A stretch of DNA of 37,622 bases, taken from a bacterium (GTDB taxonomy: Bacteria > Electryoneota > RPQS01 > DYHQ01). Location: contig JAZDIW010000044.1 in assembly GCA_043804575.1 (NCBI GenBank), positions 1 through 37,622 on the forward strand, given 5' to 3'. Position numbers and translations under genes: made by a program. The notes beneath the pieces were generated by a model that was not told where the DNA came from, made no database searches, and saw only the letters and a program-made list of their open reading frames with translations. This document shows, piece by piece, positions 1 through 19,172 of the stretch (the first letter of the stretch is position 1; the number at the start of each line of letters is the position of its first letter).

Positions 1-1
1 G

Positions 2-193
2 TGGTACAAGGCTCAGCAATTGGCCGATACTTATTGGCTTTCCGTGGTCTGGGATCCGACTGGTTCGGATCCCGAGCATGTGGCTATCAAGAACCCGGCG
101 GCCACCTTAGATCACGCCAAGCGCGAGATTATGGCCGCACGATTCTACGAAATTCCGGCGGAAGCGATTCTCAGGGCTGGTTCCTCATCATGA
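2..193 (+). CDS. 3' end (last 63 codons plus TGA) of an upstream gene running off the left edge. The tail resembles the end of a restriction-endonuclease-fold (PD-(D/E)xK / DUF3883-type) domain.
   Basis: Frame 2 is open from the window edge to TGA 191-193. It translates to WYKAQQLADTYWLSVVWDPTGSDPEHVAIKNPAATLDHAKREIMAARFYEIPAEAILRAGSSS*. It is absent from the ORF track because it has no in-window start codon. I associate 'YWLxVV....IxNP' with C-termini of nuclease-fold domains (recollection, not a search). The stop overlaps the darT ATG (ATGA at 190-193). Confidence 0.45.
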   Translation, partial: WYKAQQLADTYWLSVVWDPTGSDPEHVAIKNPAATLDHAKREIMAARFYEIPAEAILRAGSSS

Positions 194-795
194 TGCGAAC
201 CGACCTGAAAGAGTTGCACTACATCACGGCCATCGGGAATGTCCCCTCCATTCTCCAGCATGGTATTCTGTCGCACAAGCGCGCGGACAAGGTAATCCAC
301 AAGTCTGTGGCTATGCAGGAGATTCAAGACCGACGCAAGTCCGTCGTTGTACCTAATGGAAGGCCACTTCATGAATACGCTAATCTTTATTTCAACGCGC
401 GAAATCCGATGCTGTTCAAAGACGTGTGGGGCGGTATTTTCTCTGACGAAGATCTCTGTGTACTTATTGTAACACCAGACGTAATTGATTTGCCGGATGT
501 TGTGATCACGGATCGCAACGCATCGAGTAACTACACTCGGTTTCGCCCGTCACCGAGCGGGCTGTTACTTATAGACGAGGACACATTTGCCGAGTCGTGG
601 AAGCATCCGGAAAGTGAAGTGGCCGAATGGGAGCACAAGTCAAAGATGTGCGCCGAGGTTTTGGTTCCAAATGTCGTTCCAAATCGTTACATTATGGGAG
701 CCTACGTGTCATGCGCGGCCGCGAAGCGGAAGCTCAGGGCAGTCGCGCCCTCGCTCACCGTCACCATCAACAAGAAGATGTTTTTCAAAAAATAG
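190..795 (+). CDS. darT: DarT, DUF4433-family ssDNA thymidine ADP-ribosyltransferase toxin (201 aa)
   Basis: MMRTDLKELHYITAIGNVPSILQHGILSH..., YANLYFNARNPML, and a C-terminal KMCAEVLVPNVVP (putative catalytic Glu) match the DUF4433/DarT pattern. It is followed directly by a macrodomain gene. I prefer ATG 190 over the track's GTG at 1, because residues 1-63 of the frame-1 ORF look non-coding and frame 2 carries a better ORF there. Confidence 0.85.
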   Translation: MMRTDLKELHYITAIGNVPSILQHGILSHKRADKVIHKSVAMQEIQDRRKSVVVPNGRPLHEYANLYFNARNPMLFKDVWGGIFSDEDLCVLIVTPDVIDLPDVVITDRNASSNYTRFRPSPSGLLLIDEDTFAESWKHPESEVAEWEHKSKMCAEVLVPNVVPNRYIMGAYVSCAAAKRKLRAVAPSLTVTINKKMFFKK

Positions 796-804
796 GAGAG
801 TGCA

Positions 805-1911
805 ATGGAGGTCAAAGTACTAACGGGTGATCTGTTCAACTCCAAAGCTCAGACTCTCGTCAACACTGTGAACTGCGTGGGTGTAATGGGTAAGGGTGTC
901 GCTTTGGAGTTCAAAAATCGCTTTCCTGATATGTTCGAGGACTATCTCGCGCGTTGCAGGCGGCATGAGGTCAAGCTCGGTTGGCCGTACCTTTATAAGA
1001 TCCATGCCAACCAATGGATCCTGAACTTCCCGACGAAGGATCACTGGAGATCCTTGTCGCGGGTTGAGGACATCGTGGCGGGATTGAACTACCTGCTGCA
1101 GCACTACAAAGAATGGGGGATCAAATCCTTGGCAGTGCCTCCTCTTGGAAGCGGGCAAGGCGGCTTGGAATGGCGGATTGTTGGTCCCATTCTCCATCGC
1201 TACCTTGGTCAGATGGACATTCCGGTCGAACTCTATGCTCCGCACGACACGCCAACTGAGGAACTCCAACTTAGCTTCTTGCAGAAAGAAGGCAAAATAC
1301 TTGCCAGACCTGAAAAGGAGCGCATGAATCCTGCGTGGGTCGCGCTGGTTGAGATTCTGAGGCGGATCGAGAGTGAACCTTATCATTGGCCCGTAGGACG
1401 CACGACATTTCAGAAGATTGCCTTCGTGGCCACGTCGGAGGGCCTGCCCACGGGTTTGAATTTCCAGCGAGGTAGCTATGGGCCATATGCAGCGGAGCTG
1501 AAGAACTTGACGGCTCGGCTCTTGAACCACCATCTCATTTTAGAGAGGCAGTCGGGCAAGATGTTCGCCGTTTCGGTCGGCCCATCATACGAAGTCGCCA
1601 AAAAAGAGTACGCCGGCGAGCTTGCGAAGTGGCACGAGCAGATGGATCGAGTCGCTGATTTGTTTGTGCGTCTCCGGACGAATCAGGCTGAGATCGTCGC
1701 TACGGTGTTGTGTGCAAGTCAAGAACTCTCCAAGACCGAAAAAGGCATTCCCAGCGAAAAAGATGTTCTGTCTGAAGTGATGGCATGGAAGCAGAAGCGT
1801 CGCCCGCCCCTTGATGAAGGTGAAGTCGCTTCGACCATTCGGAACTTGGCAATGCTGGGGTGGCTGAAGGTGAAAGCGAGCACCGATCTTCCCATAGCTG
1901 AGGTTGCTTAA
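805..1911 (+). CDS. darG: DarG, macrodomain DNA ADP-ribosylglycohydrolase antitoxin with a C-terminal toxin-binding domain (368 aa)
   Basis: The N-terminal macrodomain carries TLVNTVNCVGVMGKGVALEFKNRFP, NFPTKDHWR (catalytic-Lys context) and AVPPLGSGQGGL. An AGGAG RBS sits 6-10 nt upstream of ATG 805. The gene lies 9 nt after the darT stop. Confidence 0.85.
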   Translation: MEVKVLTGDLFNSKAQTLVNTVNCVGVMGKGVALEFKNRFPDMFEDYLARCRRHEVKLGWPYLYKIHANQWILNFPTKDHWRSLSRVEDIVAGLNYLLQHYKEWGIKSLAVPPLGSGQGGLEWRIVGPILHRYLGQMDIPVELYAPHDTPTEELQLSFLQKEGKILARPEKERMNPAWVALVEILRRIESEPYHWPVGRTTFQKIAFVATSEGLPTGLNFQRGSYGPYAAELKNLTARLLNHHLILERQSGKMFAVSVGPSYEVAKKEYAGELAKWHEQMDRVADLFVRLRTNQAEIVATVLCASQELSKTEKGIPSEKDVLSEVMAWKQKRRPPLDEGEVASTIRNLAMLGWLKVKASTDLPIAEVA

Positions 1912-1915
1912 CCCA

Positions 1916-4900
1916 ATGTCGCAATCCCCCCGCTTAATCGAAGATTACCTGCCCATTGAGGCCATCAGTAAGGAAGCCTCGCGGGAGAAGCGCCATATCT
2001 CAGGGATTCACTTGTGGTGGGCGAGGCGGCCGCTGGTGGCGTGCCGGGCGGCGGTGTATGGCGCGCTCGTGCCTGCGTCGCGGTTCGAGCCAAAGAACGG
2101 ACCCGAGGAGAAGCGCAGAAGCCTGGGGCGGGCGAATGCGGCGAAGTTTGTCGAACGGCTCTGCAAGTATCCCGGTGATCCGAAAGTGATCAAAGAAGCC
2201 GAGCAGCATATTCTGGAGGCTCATGCCGAACGGCTTTCGGCGGAGCAGGGCAAGACGATCACGGTCGAGGATATTCGTGAAGGGCGTGCGCCGAGGCCGA
2301 AAGTGCTCGACATGTTCGCGGGCGGTGGAGCGATTCCGCTCGAAGCTCTGCGGCTCGGCTGCGAGGCGTACGCCATGGATTTAAATCCTGTGGCGTATAT
2401 CATCGAACTATGCACGCTCGTCTATCCGCAGAAGTACGGCAAGCCGGATCCAAATGCGCGCGGAATGACCGGGCCGAAAAACGCGAAAGGCGAAACCACA
2501 TGGGGCGGCCTTGCGGACGAAGTGCGCCATTGGGGCAATTGGGTGCTCGAACGGGTGAAGGCAGAGATTGGCGACCTCTATCCGCCGATTCCTGATCCGG
2601 CCGCGTCGAAAACCAAGGTGGATCTTGGCAAGAACCAAGTGGAAATGGCCTCGGGCGGGTTTCAGCAGAAGGGGCAGCAGGTGCTCGCCGAAGAATCATC
2701 GACCGGATTTCTGACTCCCGTAGCCTATCTGTGGACGCGGACGGTGGCGTGCAAGAATCCGGCGTGCGGGGCAACGGTGCCGCTCGTACGACAGACATGG
2801 CTCTGCAAGAAAGAGAAGCGCTACGCGGCACTGCGGATGATCGCGCCCAAGGGTGAGAGGCGCGTGCGTTTTGAAGTAGTTGAGGCAGCCACAGAGGCGG
2901 GCTTGGGCTTTGATCCGGCGGCCTTCAGCAAAGGTGGAAATGCGACCTGTCCGTTCTGCGGTACGGTGGCGGACAGCGCGCATGTGAAGGCCGAGGGCTG
3001 TGCCGGGCGCATGGCCCAACAGATGATGGCGATTGTGTGCACTCGGCCCACCGCGCGCGGCAAAATCTATCTCTCTGCCGACGACTACCGCGATCATATC
3101 CCAGATGACGAAGCAATCCGAAAACAAATCGAAGTGCTGTGTCACATCTCAGGCTTGACAATACCCAACGAACAAATCGCAGGGCTGTCTCCTAAACAAT
3201 TCGAAAATACTCTTGGAATTGGTATCCGGCCCTATGGATACCAAACCTTCGCTGACCTATTTTCAGATCGACAGAAGGCGTGCCTAATCGCTTTCGCGTA
3301 CGCGATTCGTCAATCCTCATTGGAAATCAAATCACGGATGTTTGTATCGGAAATACGCAATGTGGCTGTCGGGGATACTGACCCAAACAGAATCGTCGCG
3401 ATATCCACCTATCTGGCGGCAGTTCTCGATAAGGTTGCAGACTACAGTTCGCTACTCTGTTCTTGGCACAGCGGGAATCAACAAATCAGGAACACTTTTG
3501 GAATGCAGGCCCTACCAATGGTATGGGACTCGGCTGAAACCAATCCCCTCGGTGGATCGAGCGGCAGTTGGCAAAGCATGATTGACAGCACAATTGAAGG
3601 AATGGGAGTCTGTTTAGATTCATCCGACCGAACGGCGCAAGCATCCCGTGGAACAGCCTCACATCTTCCGTATATCGAACATTTCTTCGAAGCAGTAGTT
3701 ACGGATCCGCCATATTATGATAACGTTCCGTATTCCGACATTTCTGACTACTTCTACGTGTGGTTGAAAAGGTCTATCGGTCCTGCGTACCCTGAACATT
3801 TCGTTGGCGATTTAACCCCTAAAAGGACTGAGGCGATAGCTGACCCCCAGCGTCATGGCGGGTCCAAGCCGAGAGCACGTGCGGCTTATGAAAGCATGAT
3901 GCTGGGAGTATTTTCGGAAGCGAGGCGAGTTCTCGCAGACAGCGGCCTGTTAGTCGTTATTTATGCGCACAAGACTACCATCGGTTGGGCGACCCTGATT
4001 GACGCCCTACGACGCGCTGGTTTTATCATCATGGAAGCGTGGCCTCTTGACACCGAGATGAAATCTCGGCTCAGGTTTACAGACTCCTCAGCTCTTGCCT
4101 CCAATATTTTCCTCGTTGCGCGCAAGCAAGAGGGGGCGCGGACGGGGTCGTATGAGACGGAGGTGCGGCCACAGCTTGAGGAGATTGTGCGCGAGCGCGT
4201 AGAGACGCTGTGGGAGATGGGGATTGCGGGTGCGGACCTCGTGATTGCCGCCGTGGGCGCGGGGCTGAAGGCGTACACGCAGTTCGCGCGCGTGGAGAAG
4301 GCGAACGGCGAGGAGATGCCCGCCGAAGGATTCCTCGCCGAAGTGGAAGGGGTCGTGTTGAGCTACTTGCTCGAGAAGATTTTCAAAGTCAGCCGCTCGG
4401 GAGTCGAAGCGCTGGACGGCCCGACACGCTTCTATGTGCTGTGGCGCTACGCCTACGGCAACGCGACGCTCGACGCGGGCGAAGCGATTGTGATGAGCTA
4501 TGGACAACCTGTGGAACTGGACGGCCCGCGCGGACTCTCGGCGGGGTCGAATGGCCTGCTCGAAAAGAAGAAGGGGAGCTACCGCCTGCGCGACTTCACC
4601 GAGCGCGGCAAGGACGAAGGACTGGGCCTATCCGACGGCAACAACTCCGCCTCGCTGATTGATATTCTGCATCGCGTGCTCTGGCTTGTGGAGAACCACC
4701 CACGCGCGCTGAAATCATACCTTGATCAAGCCACGCCGAATACGGAGCACCTCCGCCTTGTCGCCCAGGCCTTGGCTGGCCCCGCACTAAAGGGGAATGT
4801 GGAATCTGCCGACGCGCTAATCACCACTACCACCGCCGAGCAATCCGCCTTGGGCAAGCTCCTCGCGAACTGGAGATCGCTGGTGGAGACGGGGTTGTTC

Positions 4901-4942
4901 AGCGGAACAACTACACCTCCGCAGGGCAATTTAGGGGTGTAG
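1916..4942 (+). CDS. DUF1156-family Zn-ribbon DNA methyltransferase (N6-adenine/N4-cytosine type), 1008 aa
   Basis: N-terminus IEDYLPIEAISKEASREK...IHLWWARRPLVACRA is the DUF1156 signature. SAM motif I is VLDMFAGGGAIPLEA and motif IV is VVTDPPYYDN. A Cys4 ribbon is present (CKNPACG...CPFCG). ATG 1916 has GAGG 13 nt upstream. The track's TTG 1904 start would overlap darG by 8 nt. Confidence 0.85.
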   Translation: MSQSPRLIEDYLPIEAISKEASREKRHISGIHLWWARRPLVACRAAVYGALVPASRFEPKNGPEEKRRSLGRANAAKFVERLCKYPGDPKVIKEAEQHILEAHAERLSAEQGKTITVEDIREGRAPRPKVLDMFAGGGAIPLEALRLGCEAYAMDLNPVAYIIELCTLVYPQKYGKPDPNARGMTGPKNAKGETTWGGLADEVRHWGNWVLERVKAEIGDLYPPIPDPAASKTKVDLGKNQVEMASGGFQQKGQQVLAEESSTGFLTPVAYLWTRTVACKNPACGATVPLVRQTWLCKKEKRYAALRMIAPKGERRVRFEVVEAATEAGLGFDPAAFSKGGNATCPFCGTVADSAHVKAEGCAGRMAQQMMAIVCTRPTARGKIYLSADDYRDHIPDDEAIRKQIEVLCHISGLTIPNEQIAGLSPKQFENTLGIGIRPYGYQTFADLFSDRQKACLIAFAYAIRQSSLEIKSRMFVSEIRNVAVGDTDPNRIVAISTYLAAVLDKVADYSSLLCSWHSGNQQIRNTFGMQALPMVWDSAETNPLGGSSGSWQSMIDSTIEGMGVCLDSSDRTAQASRGTASHLPYIEHFFEAVVTDPPYYDNVPYSDISDYFYVWLKRSIGPAYPEHFVGDLTPKRTEAIADPQRHGGSKPRARAAYESMMLGVFSEARRVLADSGLLVVIYAHKTTIGWATLIDALRRAGFIIMEAWPLDTEMKSRLRFTDSSALASNIFLVARKQEGARTGSYETEVRPQLEEIVRERVETLWEMGIAGADLVIAAVGAGLKAYTQFARVEKANGEEMPAEGFLAEVEGVVLSYLLEKIFKVSRSGVEALDGPTRFYVLWRYAYGNATLDAGEAIVMSYGQPVELDGPRGLSAGSNGLLEKKKGSYRLRDFTERGKDEGLGLSDGNNSASLIDILHRVLWLVENHPRALKSYLDQATPNTEHLRLVAQALAGPALKGNVESADALITTTTAEQSALGKLLANWRSLVETGLFSGTTTPPQGNLGV

Positions 4943-4992
4943 GCAAATCAGACCGTAATGAAGCACAGGAAAAATACAACGGACTCAATTAC

Positions 4993-5877
4993 ATGGACTT
5001 CAAAGCCGAGAACTTCTACGATGAGCTGAGCCGCAAGTGCAAGGAGGTGAACAACACGATCAGCGGCATGGTATCGGGATCCTACTACACTGGGACACAC
5101 GCGGAAGAAGAGCACGACCGCTACGAGATGCTCCTCAAATACCAAGTGCAGGACCTGTACAGGTCGACTTTTGTCGCGCTTGACGCGCTGGGACTTCATG
5201 CATCACGAGATGCACTCAAAGATGAATATTGCCAATTCTCTCACAGGCCGACATCCCTTGAGTATATTCCCTCTGTCGGAACGATGACGAACCCAGCGAC
5301 TGATTGCATTAGCTCCTATGTCGAGGCGATAGGTGCCGGGCTCAGCGGCGAGTCAGTCAGGCAGTCACAGCAGGAAACCGAGCGAGGAAAGCTCGAAAGA
5401 ATACTGGTGTCGACACCAACGATCATATATGATCAGAAGTTGGAGCCTAAGAATGAAGCAGAGGTCAGGCGCGTGATGTTCAACCTCCTCAAGATCAGCT
5501 ACCCAGACACGATTAGAGAATTCTCTATCGGCCAAGAACTAAAATCCTTCAAGCCGGATTTCGGCATTCGTTCTCTGAAGACCGCCATAGAGTACAAATA
5601 TGCGGCGACTGAGCAGGAAGCAAAGATCTGCGTTGACGGGATATTTGCGGACATGCACGGTTACAGTGGTTCACAGGACTGGCAGTGGTTTTATGCAGTT
5701 ATCTATCAGACAGAAGCCTTTGTCACGCAGGCGCAGGTGAACGCCCAATTTGCGGCGGTCGAAAAACAAGGAAACTGGAAGTGCTTCGTGGTGACTGGCA
5801 AGGGCACACGCGCGGTGCGTAAAGCCTCCTCTAAAAAGGGCAAGCCGACGAAACCCAAAAAGGGGCCGGAGAAGTAA
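4993..5877 (+). CDS. Hypothetical protein, 294 aa. The C-terminal half has a PD-(D/E)xK-like nuclease motif, followed by a Lys-rich tail.
   Basis: ...NEAEVRRVMFNLL...FKPDFGIRSLKTAIEYKY... gives E156 / D189 / E200-x-K202 in the spacing typical of the restriction-endonuclease fold. The tail RKASSKKGKPTKPKKGPEK has 9 basic residues of 19. The gene sits between the DUF1156 and DUF499 genes on the same strand, with gaps of 50 and 44 nt. Confidence 0.5.
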   Translation: MDFKAENFYDELSRKCKEVNNTISGMVSGSYYTGTHAEEEHDRYEMLLKYQVQDLYRSTFVALDALGLHASRDALKDEYCQFSHRPTSLEYIPSVGTMTNPATDCISSYVEAIGAGLSGESVRQSQQETERGKLERILVSTPTIIYDQKLEPKNEAEVRRVMFNLLKISYPDTIREFSIGQELKSFKPDFGIRSLKTAIEYKYAATEQEAKICVDGIFADMHGYSGSQDWQWFYAVIYQTEAFVTQAQVNAQFAAVEKQGNWKCFVVTGKGTRAVRKASSKKGKPTKPKKGPEK

Positions 5878-5921
5878 CGCTGCTCTCAGCATGGCGCAAA
5901 AACAGATGGAGATATGAATAA

Positions 5922-8801
5922 ATGAGCTCAAGCACCCTACGTCCGTGGACTGAAGTTGTCCGCTTGCATCCTGATGTGGAAGCGGGAGCGCTCACGGAGG
6001 CTTTGTTCGCCATAGACCTTGGCGCTATCGCCGAGGGAAGCACAACCGTGCCTGTGGTCAACCGCGACCCGCAGGAGTTCTTCCGCGCGACCTATCTGAC
6101 TGCTGATTTGTCCAAACTGCTGAACGAGGTGTTGGCGTCACTTGCGGGAAAGGAGAATTACAATCGCGTACTCAAGCTGCGCACACCCTTCGGCGGAGGC
6201 AAGTCTCACACCCTCGCGGCGCTCTACCACGCGTCCAAGTCGCGGGCAGTGCTCGATCACTTCCCCGAACTGAAAGGATTCGCCAATCCGGGCTCTGTGG
6301 CCGTGGCTGTGTTCGACGGCGAGAAATTCGATGCACTTAGCGGCAAGGATGTGGGCGGAGGCCGAACAGTCAAGACCATGTGGGGATGGCTCGCGTGGCA
6401 GATTGACCCCAAGAAGGCATACCCCATCGTGGAAGAACACGACCAGAAGCGTGTTTCGCCGGGCGGCGACACGATTCGCAAGCTGTTCACGGAAGGTGCG
6501 GGTGGGCGACCGGTGCTGATCCTGATTGACGAGCTGTTGCAGTATGTGGAGCGTGCCGGATCGGTGTCCGTTTTGGATTCGACATTGCAACGGCAGGCCA
6601 AGGATTTCTTCCACAATCTGACTGTGGAGGTTGCCAACAGCCGGAATTGGGCGCTCGTGTACTCGCTTCAGTGGAGCAAGAGCAAAGAAGCGCTGGCACA
6701 CCTTGCGCTACTCGAAGAGCTTGACCACATTGCGGCCCGCGTGGATCAGATGCGCGAGCCTGTTCAGGGCGATGAGGTGTTGCCCGTTGTTCAACGGCGA
6801 CTGCTCGGTGAGTTCCCTCCAGCCGACAGAACACAGGATGTGGCAGAGGTGTACAGTGGCCTGGTCAGCGGGATGCAACGATCCTTTGCCGAATCCGAAA
6901 GCGGTCGCCGACAAGCGGAAGAAGAAGGTCTGCTTCTGCGCGACCGCATACAAAAGGCGTATCCGTTTCATCCTGCGCTGATTGATGCCATGCGGGATCG
7001 GTGGGCATCTATTGACGCCTATCAACGCACACGCGGTGCCCTGCGTTTCCTCGGCAAGGTGCTTCATGCGCTGAAAAAGGAGGGCACATCCACGGCTCTC
7101 GTCGGACCGGGGGACATTCCAATCCGAACACCAGAAGTCCGACTTCAGATGCTCAAAGAACTCGGCGCACAGAACGACTATGATCCGGTCATCTCCGAGG
7201 ACATTACCGGCCCCAATGCTCGAGCCAAGAGAATTGACGAGCGCCTCGCGCGGGAGACACCGGCGCTGGCCAATGTGCGGCCGGCCACACGACTGGCGAC
7301 AGCCATCCTTGTCTATTCTTTCGGTGGTCTCAAGAAGGAGGGCAAAGGCGAGATGGAGCTCTTGCCACCCGGGATTTCCGAACGTGAGTTGCTGGCCGCG
7401 TGTGTCAGCCCTGATCTCGACAACATCACCGCGATGGCGGTGCTTGCCGAACTTCGGAACATGTGCGTCTATCTCCACTACGATGGTGTGCGATACTGTT
7501 TCAAAAAGGATCCTAATGTCATCAAGTTGATCGAGGAAGAGGAAAAGCATGTCACTGCCAAAGATGTGATGGGTCGTGTCCGCGACCTACTTGGAAAGAA
7601 GTTGGCCGGCAGTCCCAACACATTTGTGTGGCCGGACAATTCGTCGGATCTGCCGGACGGCGAGCCGCAGTTTATCCTCGGCTATCTGCCTTTGGATTTT
7701 GCCGTTCTGCCGAGTAAAGAGCAGGATACCAAGGCGTGGGAGATGTTGTATCAATACGGGAACCGACCGCGACGGTACCGGAATGGCATCGGCGTCGTAG
7801 TGCCTGATAAGAAAGCGGCGGAAGCCGTCAAGCGCGCGGTGGGCACGATGATTGCCATAGAGCGCGTCGAAGGGAAGAAGCGACAACTGAGGCTTTCCGA
7901 CAGTCAGTTGGACGAGCTGAAGGAGCGGCGGCGGACGGAAGAGGCAGCATCAGATTCAGCTTTCAAAGACCTGTACACGGCCGTGTGGTTGCCCAGGATG
8001 GAAGAGGATGCTGATGGTCAGCGGAAGGAGGGCATCGAGCGCGTAGATAAGGCCACTCGCACGCTTCAGGCGACGGAAATCAACAAGCGGGTTATGGAAT
8101 TGCTCACCGTGGCCGGCGTTCAGCGGTTGTACCCTACAGTAACGCCTCGCAAACTCACGGAGCGGGTTAAACTCGGAGAATCCACCGCTGAAGGAGAATC
8201 CCTTCGATTGGGCGTCCGTGTAAGCGATATTGTGGATGCTTTCTATAGCTTCCTTGAACCGCCACGGCTCGAGTCAGCCGGAGCCATACGAAAGGCCATA
8301 GTGAAGGGCGTTCAGGAGGGGATGTTTGGCTACACGAGCGGTCTCGTACCTGCTTTAGGTGCAGACGGGAAATTCGCTGTCAATCCTGACAAGGTGGTCA
8401 TGGGTCGATCCATTGACGAAGACGAGGTGGACTTTGACTCCGGATTCCTGATGGTGCCGTCGGCGATTCCTCTCCCTGAACCCAAGCCGCCCATTGTTGG
8501 CACGCCACCTGTCGAGCCTCCCGTCGCACCAGTCCCAACGGTCGGCGCAATACCTCCACAGCCGCCGGATAAGCCGCGACTGGACCGTCATCCCTATGTT
8601 CGCATCCGATTCCGTGCTGACCGCGAGCAGGTCTTCAAGGTATTCAAGGCCGTGGCCAACCTGGCAGACAAGTCGGACGAGGGCAAGGTGACCGTCTGCG
8701 TTGAAGGAAAGTCATCAGCGGGGTACGACTCGTCTTGGCTGCGGAATGCGGTAGAAGAACCGCTGGACGAGGCGGACGTTGAGCGTATGCCGGAAGGTTA
8801 G
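5922..8801 (+). CDS. DUF499-family (BrxC/PglY-like) P-loop ATPase, 959 aa
   Basis: Walker A is RTPFGGGKSHTLAAL and Walker B is PVLILIDELLQYVE. The block AYPFHPALIDAMRDRWASIDAYQRTRGALRFLGKVLHAL is conserved in DUF499 proteins. A Pro-rich linker (PLPEPKPPIVGTPPVEPPVAPVP) precedes a small C-terminal domain. Confidence 0.85.
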   Translation: MSSSTLRPWTEVVRLHPDVEAGALTEALFAIDLGAIAEGSTTVPVVNRDPQEFFRATYLTADLSKLLNEVLASLAGKENYNRVLKLRTPFGGGKSHTLAALYHASKSRAVLDHFPELKGFANPGSVAVAVFDGEKFDALSGKDVGGGRTVKTMWGWLAWQIDPKKAYPIVEEHDQKRVSPGGDTIRKLFTEGAGGRPVLILIDELLQYVERAGSVSVLDSTLQRQAKDFFHNLTVEVANSRNWALVYSLQWSKSKEALAHLALLEELDHIAARVDQMREPVQGDEVLPVVQRRLLGEFPPADRTQDVAEVYSGLVSGMQRSFAESESGRRQAEEEGLLLRDRIQKAYPFHPALIDAMRDRWASIDAYQRTRGALRFLGKVLHALKKEGTSTALVGPGDIPIRTPEVRLQMLKELGAQNDYDPVISEDITGPNARAKRIDERLARETPALANVRPATRLATAILVYSFGGLKKEGKGEMELLPPGISERELLAACVSPDLDNITAMAVLAELRNMCVYLHYDGVRYCFKKDPNVIKLIEEEEKHVTAKDVMGRVRDLLGKKLAGSPNTFVWPDNSSDLPDGEPQFILGYLPLDFAVLPSKEQDTKAWEMLYQYGNRPRRYRNGIGVVVPDKKAAEAVKRAVGTMIAIERVEGKKRQLRLSDSQLDELKERRRTEEAASDSAFKDLYTAVWLPRMEEDADGQRKEGIERVDKATRTLQATEINKRVMELLTVAGVQRLYPTVTPRKLTERVKLGESTAEGESLRLGVRVSDIVDAFYSFLEPPRLESAGAIRKAIVKGVQEGMFGYTSGLVPALGADGKFAVNPDKVVMGRSIDEDEVDFDSGFLMVPSAIPLPEPKPPIVGTPPVEPPVAPVPTVGAIPPQPPDKPRLDRHPYVRIRFRADREQVFKVFKAVANLADKSDEGKVTVCVEGKSSAGYDSSWLRNAVEEPLDEADVERMPEG

Positions 8802-8893
8802 CCGGAGCAACGGTGTGTGGGCCTCAAGAGATTGAGGAATCAGGGCTGAGGTCTGGAACAAGCCATCAACTGGCAATGCTGAGAACAAAGAAA

Positions 8894-8930
8894 CAGGCTC
8901 AGAAGAAAACATCTGGGCCTGTATTTTTGT
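8894..8930 (+). terminator. Rho-independent terminator of the defence operon
   Basis: A 10-bp stem, caggctcaga (8894-8903) / tctgggcctg (8912-8921, one G-U pair), has an 8-nt loop and is followed by tatttttgt. Confidence 0.55.
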
Positions 8931-9126
8931 GCAAAAATTCACCGATATACTATCTGGTCCGCAAGAGTTCCCTCACCCGAGCAAACCGTTCAGCCTCCCC
9001 ATGGCAGACGCAAATTCCTGATGACAGGTTCGGGGCATGCCAGACGATCGTGCAGGCATAGTCTGTGGGAAAAAGCCGTTGAAGGTTGGAAATACGGTTG
9101 GAAATTCGATTTGGAGGAGAACGAAA

Positions 9127-9154
9127 AAGGACTTAGAGTAGCTTCTAAGTCCTT
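9127..9154 (-). terminator. Hairpin terminator downstream of tRNA-fMet. It is T-rich on both sides and so potentially bidirectional.
   Basis: A perfect 11-bp stem, aaggacttaga (9127-9137) / tctaagtcctt (9144-9154), has a 6-nt loop. The minus strand reads hairpin + TTTTTCGTT, and the plus strand reads hairpin + cttttcttctttgtt. Confidence 0.55.
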
Positions 9155-9168
9155 CTTTTTCTTCTTTG

Positions 9169-9242
<74 letters not shown>

Positions 9243-9250
9243 ATAGTTTC

Positions 9251-9279
9251 AATATAACGACTCAAACTCCGAAAGTCAA
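9251..9279 (-). promoter_or_regulatory. Sigma70-like promoter for tRNA-fMet
   Basis: The minus strand has TTGACT (9279-9274), a 17-nt spacer and TATATT (9256-9251). The -10 element ends 8 nt before tRNA position 1. Confidence 0.5.
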
Positions 9280-9573
9280 GCTCTGTGTTTTGGCTGCGGG
9301 CAGGTCAGGCGACCACGGCTGTCTTCCTGCATTCGCCAGCGCAACAATCGTCTTCGCGTGCCCAGCTTGTGGCAGAGATCCAAGTCAAACATCGAGCAAA
9401 TGGCGTCATAGGTTTGGCAGAATGTCGAGGGTTGGCACATTTCCTTTAACTGCAGCCATAGACATGCTGGCGGTCGCAATGTATCTCACTAATTTACAGT
9501 TACATACATTAAAACAATCGTGGCGAGGACACCCGCCTCGGCGCGAATTGACGCGAAAGTCAAGTACAACGGG

Positions 9574-10809
9574 CTATTTATCAGATTTTTCTTGACTTAC
9601 GGGACATATGAGGATGGCGATGACTCGTCGGGCATCCGCCATCAAGATGCGGTATCGTCTCTCCCCGTGAGTGATTTCTTCTCCCACTTGTGGGATTCGG
9701 CCCAGAAGTGTCAGGAGGAAGCCGCTCAGCGTGGAATAATCCCCTGGCGGAAACTCAATACCCGCAATCGTTTTCACCAAGTCGAGTTCCGCCCGCCCCG
9801 ATACAAGAAAGCGATTGGCTCCTATCCGCCTGCAAATCGGTCCGGCCTTGTCAAACTCATCTTCCACCGGCCCCAACAGCTCCTCGAGAATGTCCTCCAA
9901 AGTAACGATGCCGTCGGTGCCGCCATGTTCATCCACGACGACGGCGATGTGACGCCGGTCCGCGCGGAACTCCTCCAAGAGCTCGCGCACCGGCTTGGTT
10001 TCGGGAACGGCTTCGATAGGACGGATCACTTCGTCAAGAGCCTCAACGGGCCCCAGGAAATCGCGCGCGGAGATGTAGCCGACGATATGGTCAAGGTTGC
10101 TTTCAAACACAGGGAGTTTCGTGTGTCCGGACTCGATGAAGAGGCGCCGGGCTTTCGACACATCGTCGCCTTTGGAAATCGCCACGACCTGGGTGCGCGG
10201 CGTCATGACCTCACGCACTTTTCGATCGCGCAGAACAAAAAAACGGGAGAGAAAAGTTCCCTCTTCCGAGGAAACCATTCCGAATTTGTGGGCTTCGAGC
10301 AAGAGAAGCTGGAGTTCCTCGGCTTCGTAGAAGCGGTGGCCGGGCTTGCGGGTTTGCTGCGCCTCTCTTTTGGGGATCAAAGCGCGGCTCACGAGGCGCA
10401 CCAAAGTGAAGATGGGAAAGAATAGAACGAAGCTGAGAGCGAGCGGCAACGCAGCGAATCTCACAGCGGAATTCGCCAGTCCGAAAAAAACGGCCTTGGG
10501 AAGAATCTCTCCAACAATCAAGATGAGAAAAGGAGCGGTGACGACAATCCAGAATGGAGCCAGCCCTTGCTTGGCGGCAAAGAGCGCGAAGACGGTCGAA
10601 TAGGCGACATTGACGAGGTTGTTTCCGACCAAAGTCGTGCCCAGAAAACGCGCAGGATGACTTGCGAAGAACCTCACGAGCCTGGCGGTCAGCCGTTTCC
10701 GCCTCATCCAGACTTCCAAGAGAATGCGATCGAAGGAAGTATAGGCCGTTTCGCTTCCTGCATAGAACGCCGAAAGCAGTAGGAAGCAGACAATCAGGAC
10801 GAGGTCCAC
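9574..10809 (-). CDS. CNNM/HlyC-CorC family transporter (DUF21 + CBS pair + CorC_HlyC), CorB/TlyC-like
   Basis: An N-terminal multi-TM DUF21 domain (YAGSETAYTS) is followed by a CBS region (VREVMTPRTQVVAI...) and a C-terminal EELLGPVEDEFD...GRAELD segment. Confidence 0.85.
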   Translation of the reverse strand: MDLVLIVCFLLLSAFYAGSETAYTSFDRILLEVWMRRKRLTARLVRFFASHPARFLGTTLVGNNLVNVAYSTVFALFAAKQGLAPFWIVVTAPFLILIVGEILPKAVFFGLANSAVRFAALPLALSFVLFFPIFTLVRLVSRALIPKREAQQTRKPGHRFYEAEELQLLLLEAHKFGMVSSEEGTFLSRFFVLRDRKVREVMTPRTQVVAISKGDDVSKARRLFIESGHTKLPVFESNLDHIVGYISARDFLGPVEALDEVIRPIEAVPETKPVRELLEEFRADRRHIAVVVDEHGGTDGIVTLEDILEELLGPVEDEFDKAGPICRRIGANRFLVSGRAELDLVKTIAGIEFPPGDYSTLSGFLLTLLGRIPQVGEEITHGERRYRILMADARRVIAILICPVSQEKSDK

Positions 10810-18860: not shown

Positions 18861-18933
18861 GGGGCAGTAGCTCAGCTGGGAGAGCAATGCGTTCGCAACG
18901 CATAGGTCGGCGGTTCGAATCCGCTCTGCTCCA
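18861..18933 (+). tRNA. tRNA-Ala (anticodon CGC)
   Basis: The sequence is GGGGCAGTAGCTCAGCTGGGAGAGCAATGCGTTCGCAACGCATAGGTCGGCGGTTCGAATCCGCTCTGCTCCA. It folds as a cloverleaf with the G3:U70 alanine identity pair and the loop TTCGCAA. CCA is not fully encoded (CCG follows). Confidence 0.9.
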
Positions 18934-19056
18934 CCGGGCCAAATACCCCACCGATGGAACCGGGAAGTAGGTGGCTTCTCGAATCTCAGTTCCGGCAATC
19001 TGAAAATTCGCTGCTTGGGTTGGAAAATCAAGGCAAAACCGGATTTTTGTGTGACT

Positions 19057-19172
19057 GAAAAGGCGCCTGTGAGTCCCGTGCAAGGAATGTCGGCCCAATC
19101 CCGCCAGGACCGGAAGGTAGCAACGGTCAGCCGATGGTTCTTGTGCCGCGGGAGTGCTTCGGGCGCCTTTTC
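19057..19172 (+). ncRNA. ffs: Small (4.5S-type) signal recognition particle RNA
   Basis: The conserved domain IV core is CCAGGACCGGAAGGTAGCAACGG, with a GGAA tetraloop and an AGCA symmetric-loop motif. The termini pair perfectly: gaaaaggcgcc (19057-19067) with ggcgccttttc (19162-19172). Position just upstream of dnaX is a common synteny. Confidence 0.8.

Follow-up and report, generated by a model that had tools for sequence, protein, structure and literature searches.

A DarTG toxin-antitoxin pair and a small PD-(D/E)xK gene embedded as cargo in an Hma operon

The window analysed here is the complete public contig JAZDIW010000044.1 with a length of 37622 nt. Its positions 1-8930 form one densely packed operon on the + strand, consisting of the 3′ tail of hmaA, darT, darG, hmaB, a small PD-(D/E)xK gene, hmaC and a terminator, while the 5′ end of the operon and most of hmaA lie beyond the contig edge. 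Exact-sequence searches with DarG, DarT and HmaC of the window yielded no recorded contig that would extend it to the left. The backbone is Hma, alias the BREX-related (BR) Type-1 system centred on DUF499, which has the gene order hmaA-hmaB-hmaC. We consider it quite probable that the locus represents an Hma operon with two embedded cargos, DarTG at the hmaA/hmaB (A/B) junction and the PD-(D/E)xK nuclease at the hmaB/hmaC (B/C) junction, which would form co-regulated, mechanistically autonomous layers that arose from cassette capture. DarTG within Hma is a further example of the published pattern of embedded defence systems and no new composite system. The features of the locus are as follows.

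Positions 2-193, + strand: 3′ end of hmaA (63 codons and TGA), predicted to encode an Snf2 helicase whose C-terminal part is a PD-(D/E)xK (NOV_C) nuclease, cut by the contig end
Positions 190-795, + strand: darT, DNA ADP-ribosyltransferase toxin, cargo of the A/B slot (PF14487, PADLOC DarT)
Positions 805-1911, + strand: darG, antitoxin, cargo of the A/B slot (Macro, PADLOC DarG, NCBIfam antitoxin_DarG)
Positions 1916-4942, + strand: hmaB, DUF1156 N6-adenine DNA methyltransferase that contains a Cys4 insert (DUF1156, PADLOC HmaB)
Positions 4993-5877, + strand: small PD-(D/E)xK nuclease-like gene of the REase_DpnII-MboI family, 294 codons, cargo of the B/C slot (PF18742)
Positions 5922-8801, + strand: hmaC, DUF499 ORC/Cdc6-type AAA+ ATPase lacking a HEPN fusion at its N-terminus (DUF499, PADLOC HmaC)
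Positions 8893-8932, + strand: terminator-like hairpin and T-run closing the operon (terminator scan)
Positions 9168-9242, - strand: tRNA-Met(CAT), given for context, where the defence locus ends on the right (ARAGORN and Rfam)

Profile searches (Pfam, PADLOC, NCBIfam) upheld every gene assignment of a preliminary description made from the sequence without database searches, including its statement that such loci are catalogued by PADLOC as 'Hma'. HmaB matched DUF1156 (PF06634, 1.8e-20) and PADLOC HmaB (6.7e-135), and HmaC matched DUF499 (PF04465, 5.5e-30) and PADLOC HmaC (1.8e-98), the latter alignment starting at residue 5. HmaB has 7913 homologs at E ≤ 1e-30, and its motif I, its motif IV DPPYYDN and its four Cys residues are invariant across 20 of them. 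The translation of HmaC contains Walker A (PFGGGKSHT) and Walker B (VLILIDELL), and indeed all motifs quoted in the preliminary description are present in the translations. A DUF3780 gene, which marks BR Type-2 systems (MANTIS), was not found in the operon: the sole extra gene between hmaB and hmaC belongs to REase_DpnII-MboI, and there is no other operon open reading frame (ORF) on the + strand. The NCBIfam model DUF1156_antiphage scored HmaB with 182 bits against a cut-off of 1000, and DUF499_antiphage scored HmaC with 168 bits against a cut-off of 1200. These models appear to be tuned to another subtype, so that the NCBI pipeline would leave this Type-1 locus unnamed.

For comparison with other Hma loci we surveyed 80 genome loci and 80 metagenome loci of HmaB relatives (numbered L in the following), each set consisting of the 80 best among about 600 pattern hits (>570). 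The hmaA tail, DarT, DarG, HmaB, the small nuclease and HmaC were mapped onto these loci, and relatedness was taken from identity matrices and a numpy-based neighbour-joining ordering. The preliminary description had noted that a helicase gene was lacking and might be located upstream of position 1; it is most likely the gene cut at position 1. The 63-residue hmaA tail alone has no match in Pfam or PADLOC. Nevertheless, tblastn matched it to the C-terminal end of the gene lying just ahead of hmaB or of the cargo slot in related loci, with hits of this kind in 22 of the 80 genome loci and in most of the 80 metagenome loci. The highest identity (81-83%) was seen in L164 and L165. In L159 the full-length homolog of the tail is HmaA (PADLOC, 2.7e-195) with SNF2, Helicase_C and NOV_C domains. 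The assignment to HmaA is thus made from the last 63 codons, which are all that is readable and have homologs in the tails of complete HmaA proteins (e.g. L159, L165), whereas the helicase and nuclease cores are located off the contig.

DarT matched PF14487 (2.1e-39) over profile positions 1-190 of 201 and PADLOC DarT (1.8e-37); the NCBIfam model toxin_DarT gave 4e-31 and 108 bits, which is under its 150-bit cut-off. The Glu residue of the AEVLVP motif aligns with the catalytic position that is inactivated by an E-to-A exchange in the structure 7OMU of the Protein Data Bank. DarG matched Macro (2.6e-16), PADLOC DarG (1.7e-93, positions 2-327 of 329) and NCBIfam antitoxin_DarG (292 bits, cut-off 250). 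It is composed of an N-terminal macrodomain (about residues 1-160), which can be aligned to the structures 5M3I and 5M31 of the DarG macrodomain, and a DarG-specific C-terminal domain (about residues 179-366). An assignment of this C-terminal domain to Panacea/DUF4065 was dropped; Pfam yields no family for it at E ≤ 0.01. With a DarT domain, the catalytic Glu and a two-domain DarG directly downstream all present, the pair is predicted to be a macrodomain-type, DarTG2-like system. According to earlier work cited in PMC12255303, DarTG families act in phage defence by experiment.

DarTG is truly nested within the operon by junctions of the coupling type, as had been described. The TGA of hmaA (191-193) overlaps the ATG of darT (190-192), with a further ATG at 193-195. 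The stop codon of darT (793-795) is overlapped by an AGGAG sequence (794-798), and the darG ATG follows at 805 after a gap of 9 nt. Only 4 nt separate the TAA of darG (1909-1911) from the hmaB ATG at 1916, for which a TTG at 1904 is an alternative. Gaps of 50 nt between the hmaB stop (4942) and the ATG of the small nuclease gene (4993), and of 44 nt between the stop of the latter (5877) and the hmaC ATG (5922), precede the last two genes; hmaC stops at 8801. The junctions, overlaps and gaps agree with the preliminary description, except that the GAGG ahead of hmaB lies at 1900-1903 and not, one base off, at 1899-1902. The terminator that had been placed after the last gene is the strongest terminator-like site in 1-9600, with a + strand stem at 8893-8922 (11 pairs, 6 of them G-C) and a T-run tail, ATTTTTGTGC. 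Terminator-like sites within the operon are weak (stems of 5-7 pairs), and the total of 13 sites in the scan is no excess over the shuffle expectation of 9.4 ± 3.3. A sigma-70 promoter scan, the consensus of which may not suit the host, revealed no + strand site upstream of darT.

The hmaA/hmaB junction is a hypervariable cargo slot in related Hma loci. It was assessable in 86 loci, being empty (<150 bp) in 26 of them and carrying 300-4500 bp of extra genes in 59. The inserts encode at least 58 protein clusters (+ strand ORFs of at least 100 residues), and all 84 insert ORFs of at least 150 residues are co-oriented with hma. The cargo includes HEC-01-type ABC ATPase pairs, AbiU/AIPR, PDC-S02/DUF1016 nucleases, large SIR2/ThsA-like proteins, MazF, DUF4062-HATPase_c_4 proteins, an SLFN_AlbA_2/NB-ARC STAND protein, ParA-like ATPases and AAA_21 ATPases. 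Furthermore, HD/dGTPase-like proteins with a partner resembling the DarG C-terminal domain and a DarT-family protein with an ADP-ribosylglycohydrolase (ARH) are found in this slot.

Two of these cargo types touch on DarTG itself. In L101 (465-2948) a DarT-family protein (PF14487, 1.7e-19) is followed by an ADP-ribosylglycohydrolase of 493 residues (PF03747, 5e-51), and a macrodomain DarG is absent. Here a toxin resembling DarT may be paired with an antitoxin of the ARH type; the ARH protein has no PADLOC match. L005 (8104-9985), L096, L123 and L134 carry an HD/dGTPase-like protein of 436-509 residues together with a partner of about 185-190 residues, and the HD gene likewise occurs in L003. 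The match of the partner to the PADLOC DarG profile (5.5e-12) is confined to the C-terminal half of the latter. The partner has no Pfam family, and a BLAST comparison to the C-terminal domain of the window DarG was insignificant, so that the link between the two holds at the profile level only. The profile match suggests that the DarG C-terminal domain may be a portable antitoxin-like module serving other toxins. Some HmaB homologs (P0007, P0058, P0090, P0107, P0119) have N-terminal fusions to DprA/SLOG (PF02481, PF18306), GIY-YIG (PF01541) or a Y1 transposase domain, which implies that cargo of the A/B junction can fuse to the methylase.

The survey showed that the arrangement is no one-off. 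Of about 68 close metagenomic relatives that could be assessed, 6 (L088, L092, L100, L110, L159 and L162) hold intact DarT and DarG in the identical A/B slot, and L103 and L164 retain decayed DarTG there. None of the 80 genome loci, which are chiefly distant HmaB relatives (30-60% identity), carries DarT or DarG; the recurrence was seen solely among the closer metagenomic relatives. The ATGA overlap of hmaA and darT is shared by the window, L088 and L159. In L088, L092, L110 and L159 the darG stop and the hmaB ATG overlap by 8 nt, whereas the window has a 4-nt gap instead. The slot of L103 contains an ORF (7582-8394) in which about 115 residues of the DarT N-terminus, without the region of the catalytic Glu, are joined in frame to the DarG C-terminal domain. 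By its composition this ORF is evidently a deletion remnant of an embedded DarTG.

Comparison of the embedded copies with free-standing DarTG pairs points to repeated acquisition. DarG of the window shares 69-71% identity with stand-alone copies and only 58-62% with embedded copies. The corresponding values are 61-69% versus 45-54% for DarT and 66-68% versus 51-60% for the DarG C-terminal domain alone. The stand-alone relatives are found amid housekeeping genes or in prophage, and each is preceded by an intergenic stretch of 160-330 bp of its own. Different cargo is seen in the nearest Hma backbones, namely a STAND protein in L165 (HmaB 68-72% identical) and a DarG remnant together with other genes in L164, the closest backbone (70-74%). 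In the neighbour-joining ordering of HmaB, which has no support values, the DarTG-bearing loci are scattered. Taken together, and mainly on the basis of the three identity comparisons, these data indicate that the A/B junction has captured DarTG at least twice and that the cargo turns over fast. A co-evolution of DarTG and Hma is disfavoured because of the closer stand-alone relatives, the differing cargo in the nearest backbones and the scattered HmaB ordering.

The slot of L164 (249-2289) contains an ORF of 194 residues that is 69% identical to the window DarG C-terminal domain; darT and the macrodomain are lacking. It is followed by a protein of 333 residues without a family match and by a PIN protein. 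On the DNA level L164 lacks the window bases 170-1344 (darT and the macrodomain), and about 1.5 kb are inserted ahead of hmaB. The lineage of the window and L164 probably inherited one DarTG capture, which would later have been eroded and overwritten in L164. Alternatively, the ORF in L164 is a re-used antitoxin domain instead of an eroded DarTG. A further locus, L166 (5211-8960), shows free-standing darTG and, immediately after it, a relic of 26 residues of the hmaA C-terminal tail; the DarG of this locus shares 82% identity with the copy embedded in L092. Beyond the relic lie an AAA_21 ATPase and a region that matches DUF4276 weakly, and a transposase fragment lies upstream. L166 has the appearance of an Hma locus that was rearranged or has decayed.

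The product of the small gene between hmaB and hmaC matched REase_DpnII-MboI (PF18742) with 1e-10 and 41.8 bits, above the gathering cut-off of 27 bits. Its residues P188-D189...E200-Y-K202 are invariant in its 5 known homologs, while its 147 N-terminal residues have no family match. The family is tiny, since the 5 proteins came from a search of 5.8 billion proteins. A homolog in the same slot is present only in L165 (11053-11961, 48% identity). Another homolog, in L167 (215-1102), is located directly upstream of a BREX cluster with a BrxB-like protein, a protein of 1143 residues and a PglX-like methylase, and the remaining homologs lie amid housekeeping genes or in a mixed context. The hmaB/hmaC junction carries at least 300 bp in 70 of 130 loci. 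Judged by this distribution, the PD-(D/E)xK gene is a second embedded cargo and no core part of Hma.

Embedded genes have been described for 931 of 1,485 Hma systems (62.7%) by Payne, Hughes, Fineran & Jackson (2024, bioRxiv 10.1101/2024.01.29.577857). According to this work 22.8% of the genes embedded in Hma are known defence systems versus 3.1% mobility-associated proteins, and across Hma, BREX, DISARM and Type I restriction-modification (R-M) systems 96.7% of the embedded genes share the orientation of the flanking system. The approach, termed 'guilt-by-embedding', also led to the discovery of the HEC and PDC candidates. As a known system between the genes of another system and in the same orientation, darTG of the window is embedded in the sense of Payne 2024. 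The locus shares with the Hma systems of Payne 2021/2024 the hmaA/hmaB/hmaC backbone, the co-oriented nested genes and a cargo that largely consists of known or candidate defence genes, and the A/B occupancy found here (59/86) is similar to the published 62.7%. It differs in its cargo, which is DarTG and not Septu, HEC-01 to HEC-09, GmrSD-like proteins or BrxU as named in that work, and in having both internal junctions loaded simultaneously. DarTG as Hma cargo is absent from the text and from 11 supplementary files of Payne 2024.

In the renaming of 2026 Hma corresponds to the DUF499-centred BR Type-1 system, and auxiliary or backup nucleases were reported inside such loci (Nucleic Acids Research 2026, PMC12839542). 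The window agrees with BR Type-1 in the DUF499 ATPase, the DUF1156 N6-methyltransferase and the absence of DUF3780, and the hmaA tail suggests that the Snf2 helicase with C-terminal PD-(D/E)xK is shared as well. An N-terminal HEPN fusion of HmaC, which is present in 1370 of 2446 taxa in that study, is lacking in the window. The same paper contains no mention of DarT, DarG or macrodomain cargo, and none of the other papers searched links DarTG and Hma as nested. Nesting of DarTG is known from a Type I R-M system. In the RRDM island of enteropathogenic Escherichia coli DarTG2 lies between hsdS and hsdR as part of a functional island, darTG2 occurs in 12 of 54 RptR-linked Type I R-M systems, and the junction was proposed to be a recombination hotspot for defence cargo (Nucleic Acids Research 2025, PMC12255303). 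Both loci have DarTG nested in the operon of a methylation-based restriction system, which is a Type I R-M system in RRDM and Hma in the window. RRDM includes RptR as a dedicated repressor as well as an M48 peptidase; an equivalent is not visible in the window because the 5′ end of the operon lies off the contig. The preliminary description had regarded the locus as a candidate composite defence system, and had listed an already named subtype among the findings that would refute this. Such a finding is at hand, since embedding in Hma (10.1101/2024.01.29.577857) as well as DarTG2 in Type I R-M (PMC12255303) are already published.

The statement that no mechanistic characterisation exists is likewise outdated, since the sister system MANTIS (Gao_RL, BR Type-2) has been dissected. 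There, loading of the methyltransferase by the DUF499 ATPase together with a co-regulator results in asymmetric 6-bp sites being hemimethylated, and DNA without the mark is restricted by a helicase-nuclease (bioRxiv 10.64898/2026.09.23.753747). With its homologous DUF499 ATPase and methyltransferase MANTIS is the sole mechanistic model available for the window. However, MANTIS has the small co-regulator MtsB and a helicase-nuclease of the PLD type, whereas the window lacks both and has a predicted helicase tail of the NOV_C/PD-(D/E)xK type.

By analogy to MANTIS and from comparative analysis, HmaC would load or activate the HmaB adenine methyltransferase, which would mark the host DNA, and the Snf2 helicase-nuclease HmaA would restrict unmarked incoming DNA. 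From what is known of the DarTG family, DarG would restrain DarT in two ways, its macrodomain removing ADP-ribose from DNA and its C-terminal domain binding DarT. An infection that upsets the balance of DarG and DarT would allow DarT to ADP-ribosylate single-stranded DNA, so that replication is blocked and infection becomes abortive. The spacing of the genes suggests that darTG and the small nuclease gene are expressed from the hma transcript. As they lack a promoter region and intergenic space of their own, the embedded genes would ride on the transcription and translation of hma. The conserved flanks suggest that cassettes may be exchanged by recombination between the conserved 3′ sequence of hmaA and 5′ sequence of hmaB, and the origin of the locus would be recurrent cassette capture and not co-evolution of DarTG with Hma.

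The preliminary description had compared the locus with PrrC, which is encoded in the hsd operon of EcoprrI. PrrC is a suicide effector without an antitoxin of its own; the R-M complex keeps PrrC latent until an anti-restriction peptide of a phage sets it free. If DarTG were wired to Hma in the same manner, phage inhibition or loss of the complex of methylase, ATPase and helicase would free DarT as a suicidal back-up. The likeness lies in a suicide effector gene being nested in a restriction-modification operon. The ATGA overlap of hmaA and darT in three loci, the 8-nt overlap of darG and hmaB in four, the recurrence of DarTG in 6 further loci and the published cases of BREX and Hma loci with back-up effectors inside them (10.1101/2024.01.29.577857; PMC12839542) are all compatible with such a function. 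However, DarT has, unlike PrrC, a dedicated and complete antitoxin directly adjoining it, with macrodomain and C-terminal domain. The closest relatives of this DarTG occur in contexts without Hma and the closest relatives of this Hma occur without DarT, at least 58 unrelated cargo clusters use the same slot, and DarTG appears to have been captured independently at least twice. Together with the second cargo, the nuclease, this leaves a wired two-layer composite unsupported, and we regard it as highly improbable.

A different possibility is that DarTG is a mobile addiction cassette that hitch-hikes in a recombination-permissive junction, stabilising itself and incidentally Hma, without a meaningful anti-phage function in its host. 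This is consistent with the rapid turnover of the cargo, with the decay products in L103 (DarT joined to the DarG C-terminal domain) and L164 (DarG C-terminal domain only) and with the close stand-alone relatives in prophage and beside a transposase fragment. Homologous recombination between the conserved flanks, the hmaA tail and the hmaB head, could drive the exchange of such cassettes. Nevertheless, the identifiable cargo of the slot consists mostly of known or candidate defence genes and not of generic genes of mobile elements, in line with the defence and mobility shares published for Hma (10.1101/2024.01.29.577857). Furthermore, the experiments on DarTG families as cited in PMC12255303 demonstrate antiphage activity, the catalytic motifs are all intact in the window, and the large ORFs of the slot are universally co-oriented, which argues for selection on expression. 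A purely selfish role of DarTG is therefore unlikely in our view.

Several points weigh against two autonomous cargos that are co-regulated with Hma. Co-transcription is deduced from spacing only, and a promoter may reside inside the 3′ end of hmaA. Since hmaA is cut by the contig end, the completeness of Hma is not readable here. The survey frequencies are valid for close relatives only, the ORFs were called mechanically, the clusters are single-linkage clusters and the neighbour-joining ordering is crude. Finally, the recurrence of DarTG (6 intact copies and 2 remnants) and the 8-nt overlap of darG and hmaB in four loci could reflect a selected synergy beyond co-regulation. In at least one sub-lineage of Hma, represented by the four loci with this overlap (L088, L092, L110, L159), DarTG might be a co-adapted second layer that is translationally locked between hmaA and hmaB and guards the BREX-related system. 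Although we give this little chance, if it were true, a phage shut-off or an anti-restriction attack on the expression or assembly of Hma would deplete DarG and release DarT.

On its right-hand side the operon is followed, 367 bp past hmaC, by the tRNA-Met(CAT) gene on the - strand; a hairpin of 12 pairs (9127-9154) lies just past the 3′ end of the tRNA, and housekeeping genes lie beyond. Neither an integrase nor an attachment repeat that would point to a tRNA-linked integration of an island is visible in the window, the other end of such an island being beyond the contig. A tRNA-Ala(CGC) gene (18861-18935) and a small SRP (signal recognition particle) RNA (19067-19166) were also found.

The reading as an Hma operon with two embedded cargos means that the cargo catalogue of Hma/BR Type-1 operons gains DarTG as well as a rare solitary PD-(D/E)xK gene and that no new kind of system is involved. 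For annotation this means that two overlapping systems would be reported by PADLOC or DefenseFinder at this locus. For the evolution of Hma loci it implies that the same junction appears to have taken up DarTG at least twice, that cargo decays in place and that both internal junctions can be loaded at once. Such loci are natural constructs for asking whether embedded systems are merely co-regulated or synergistic.

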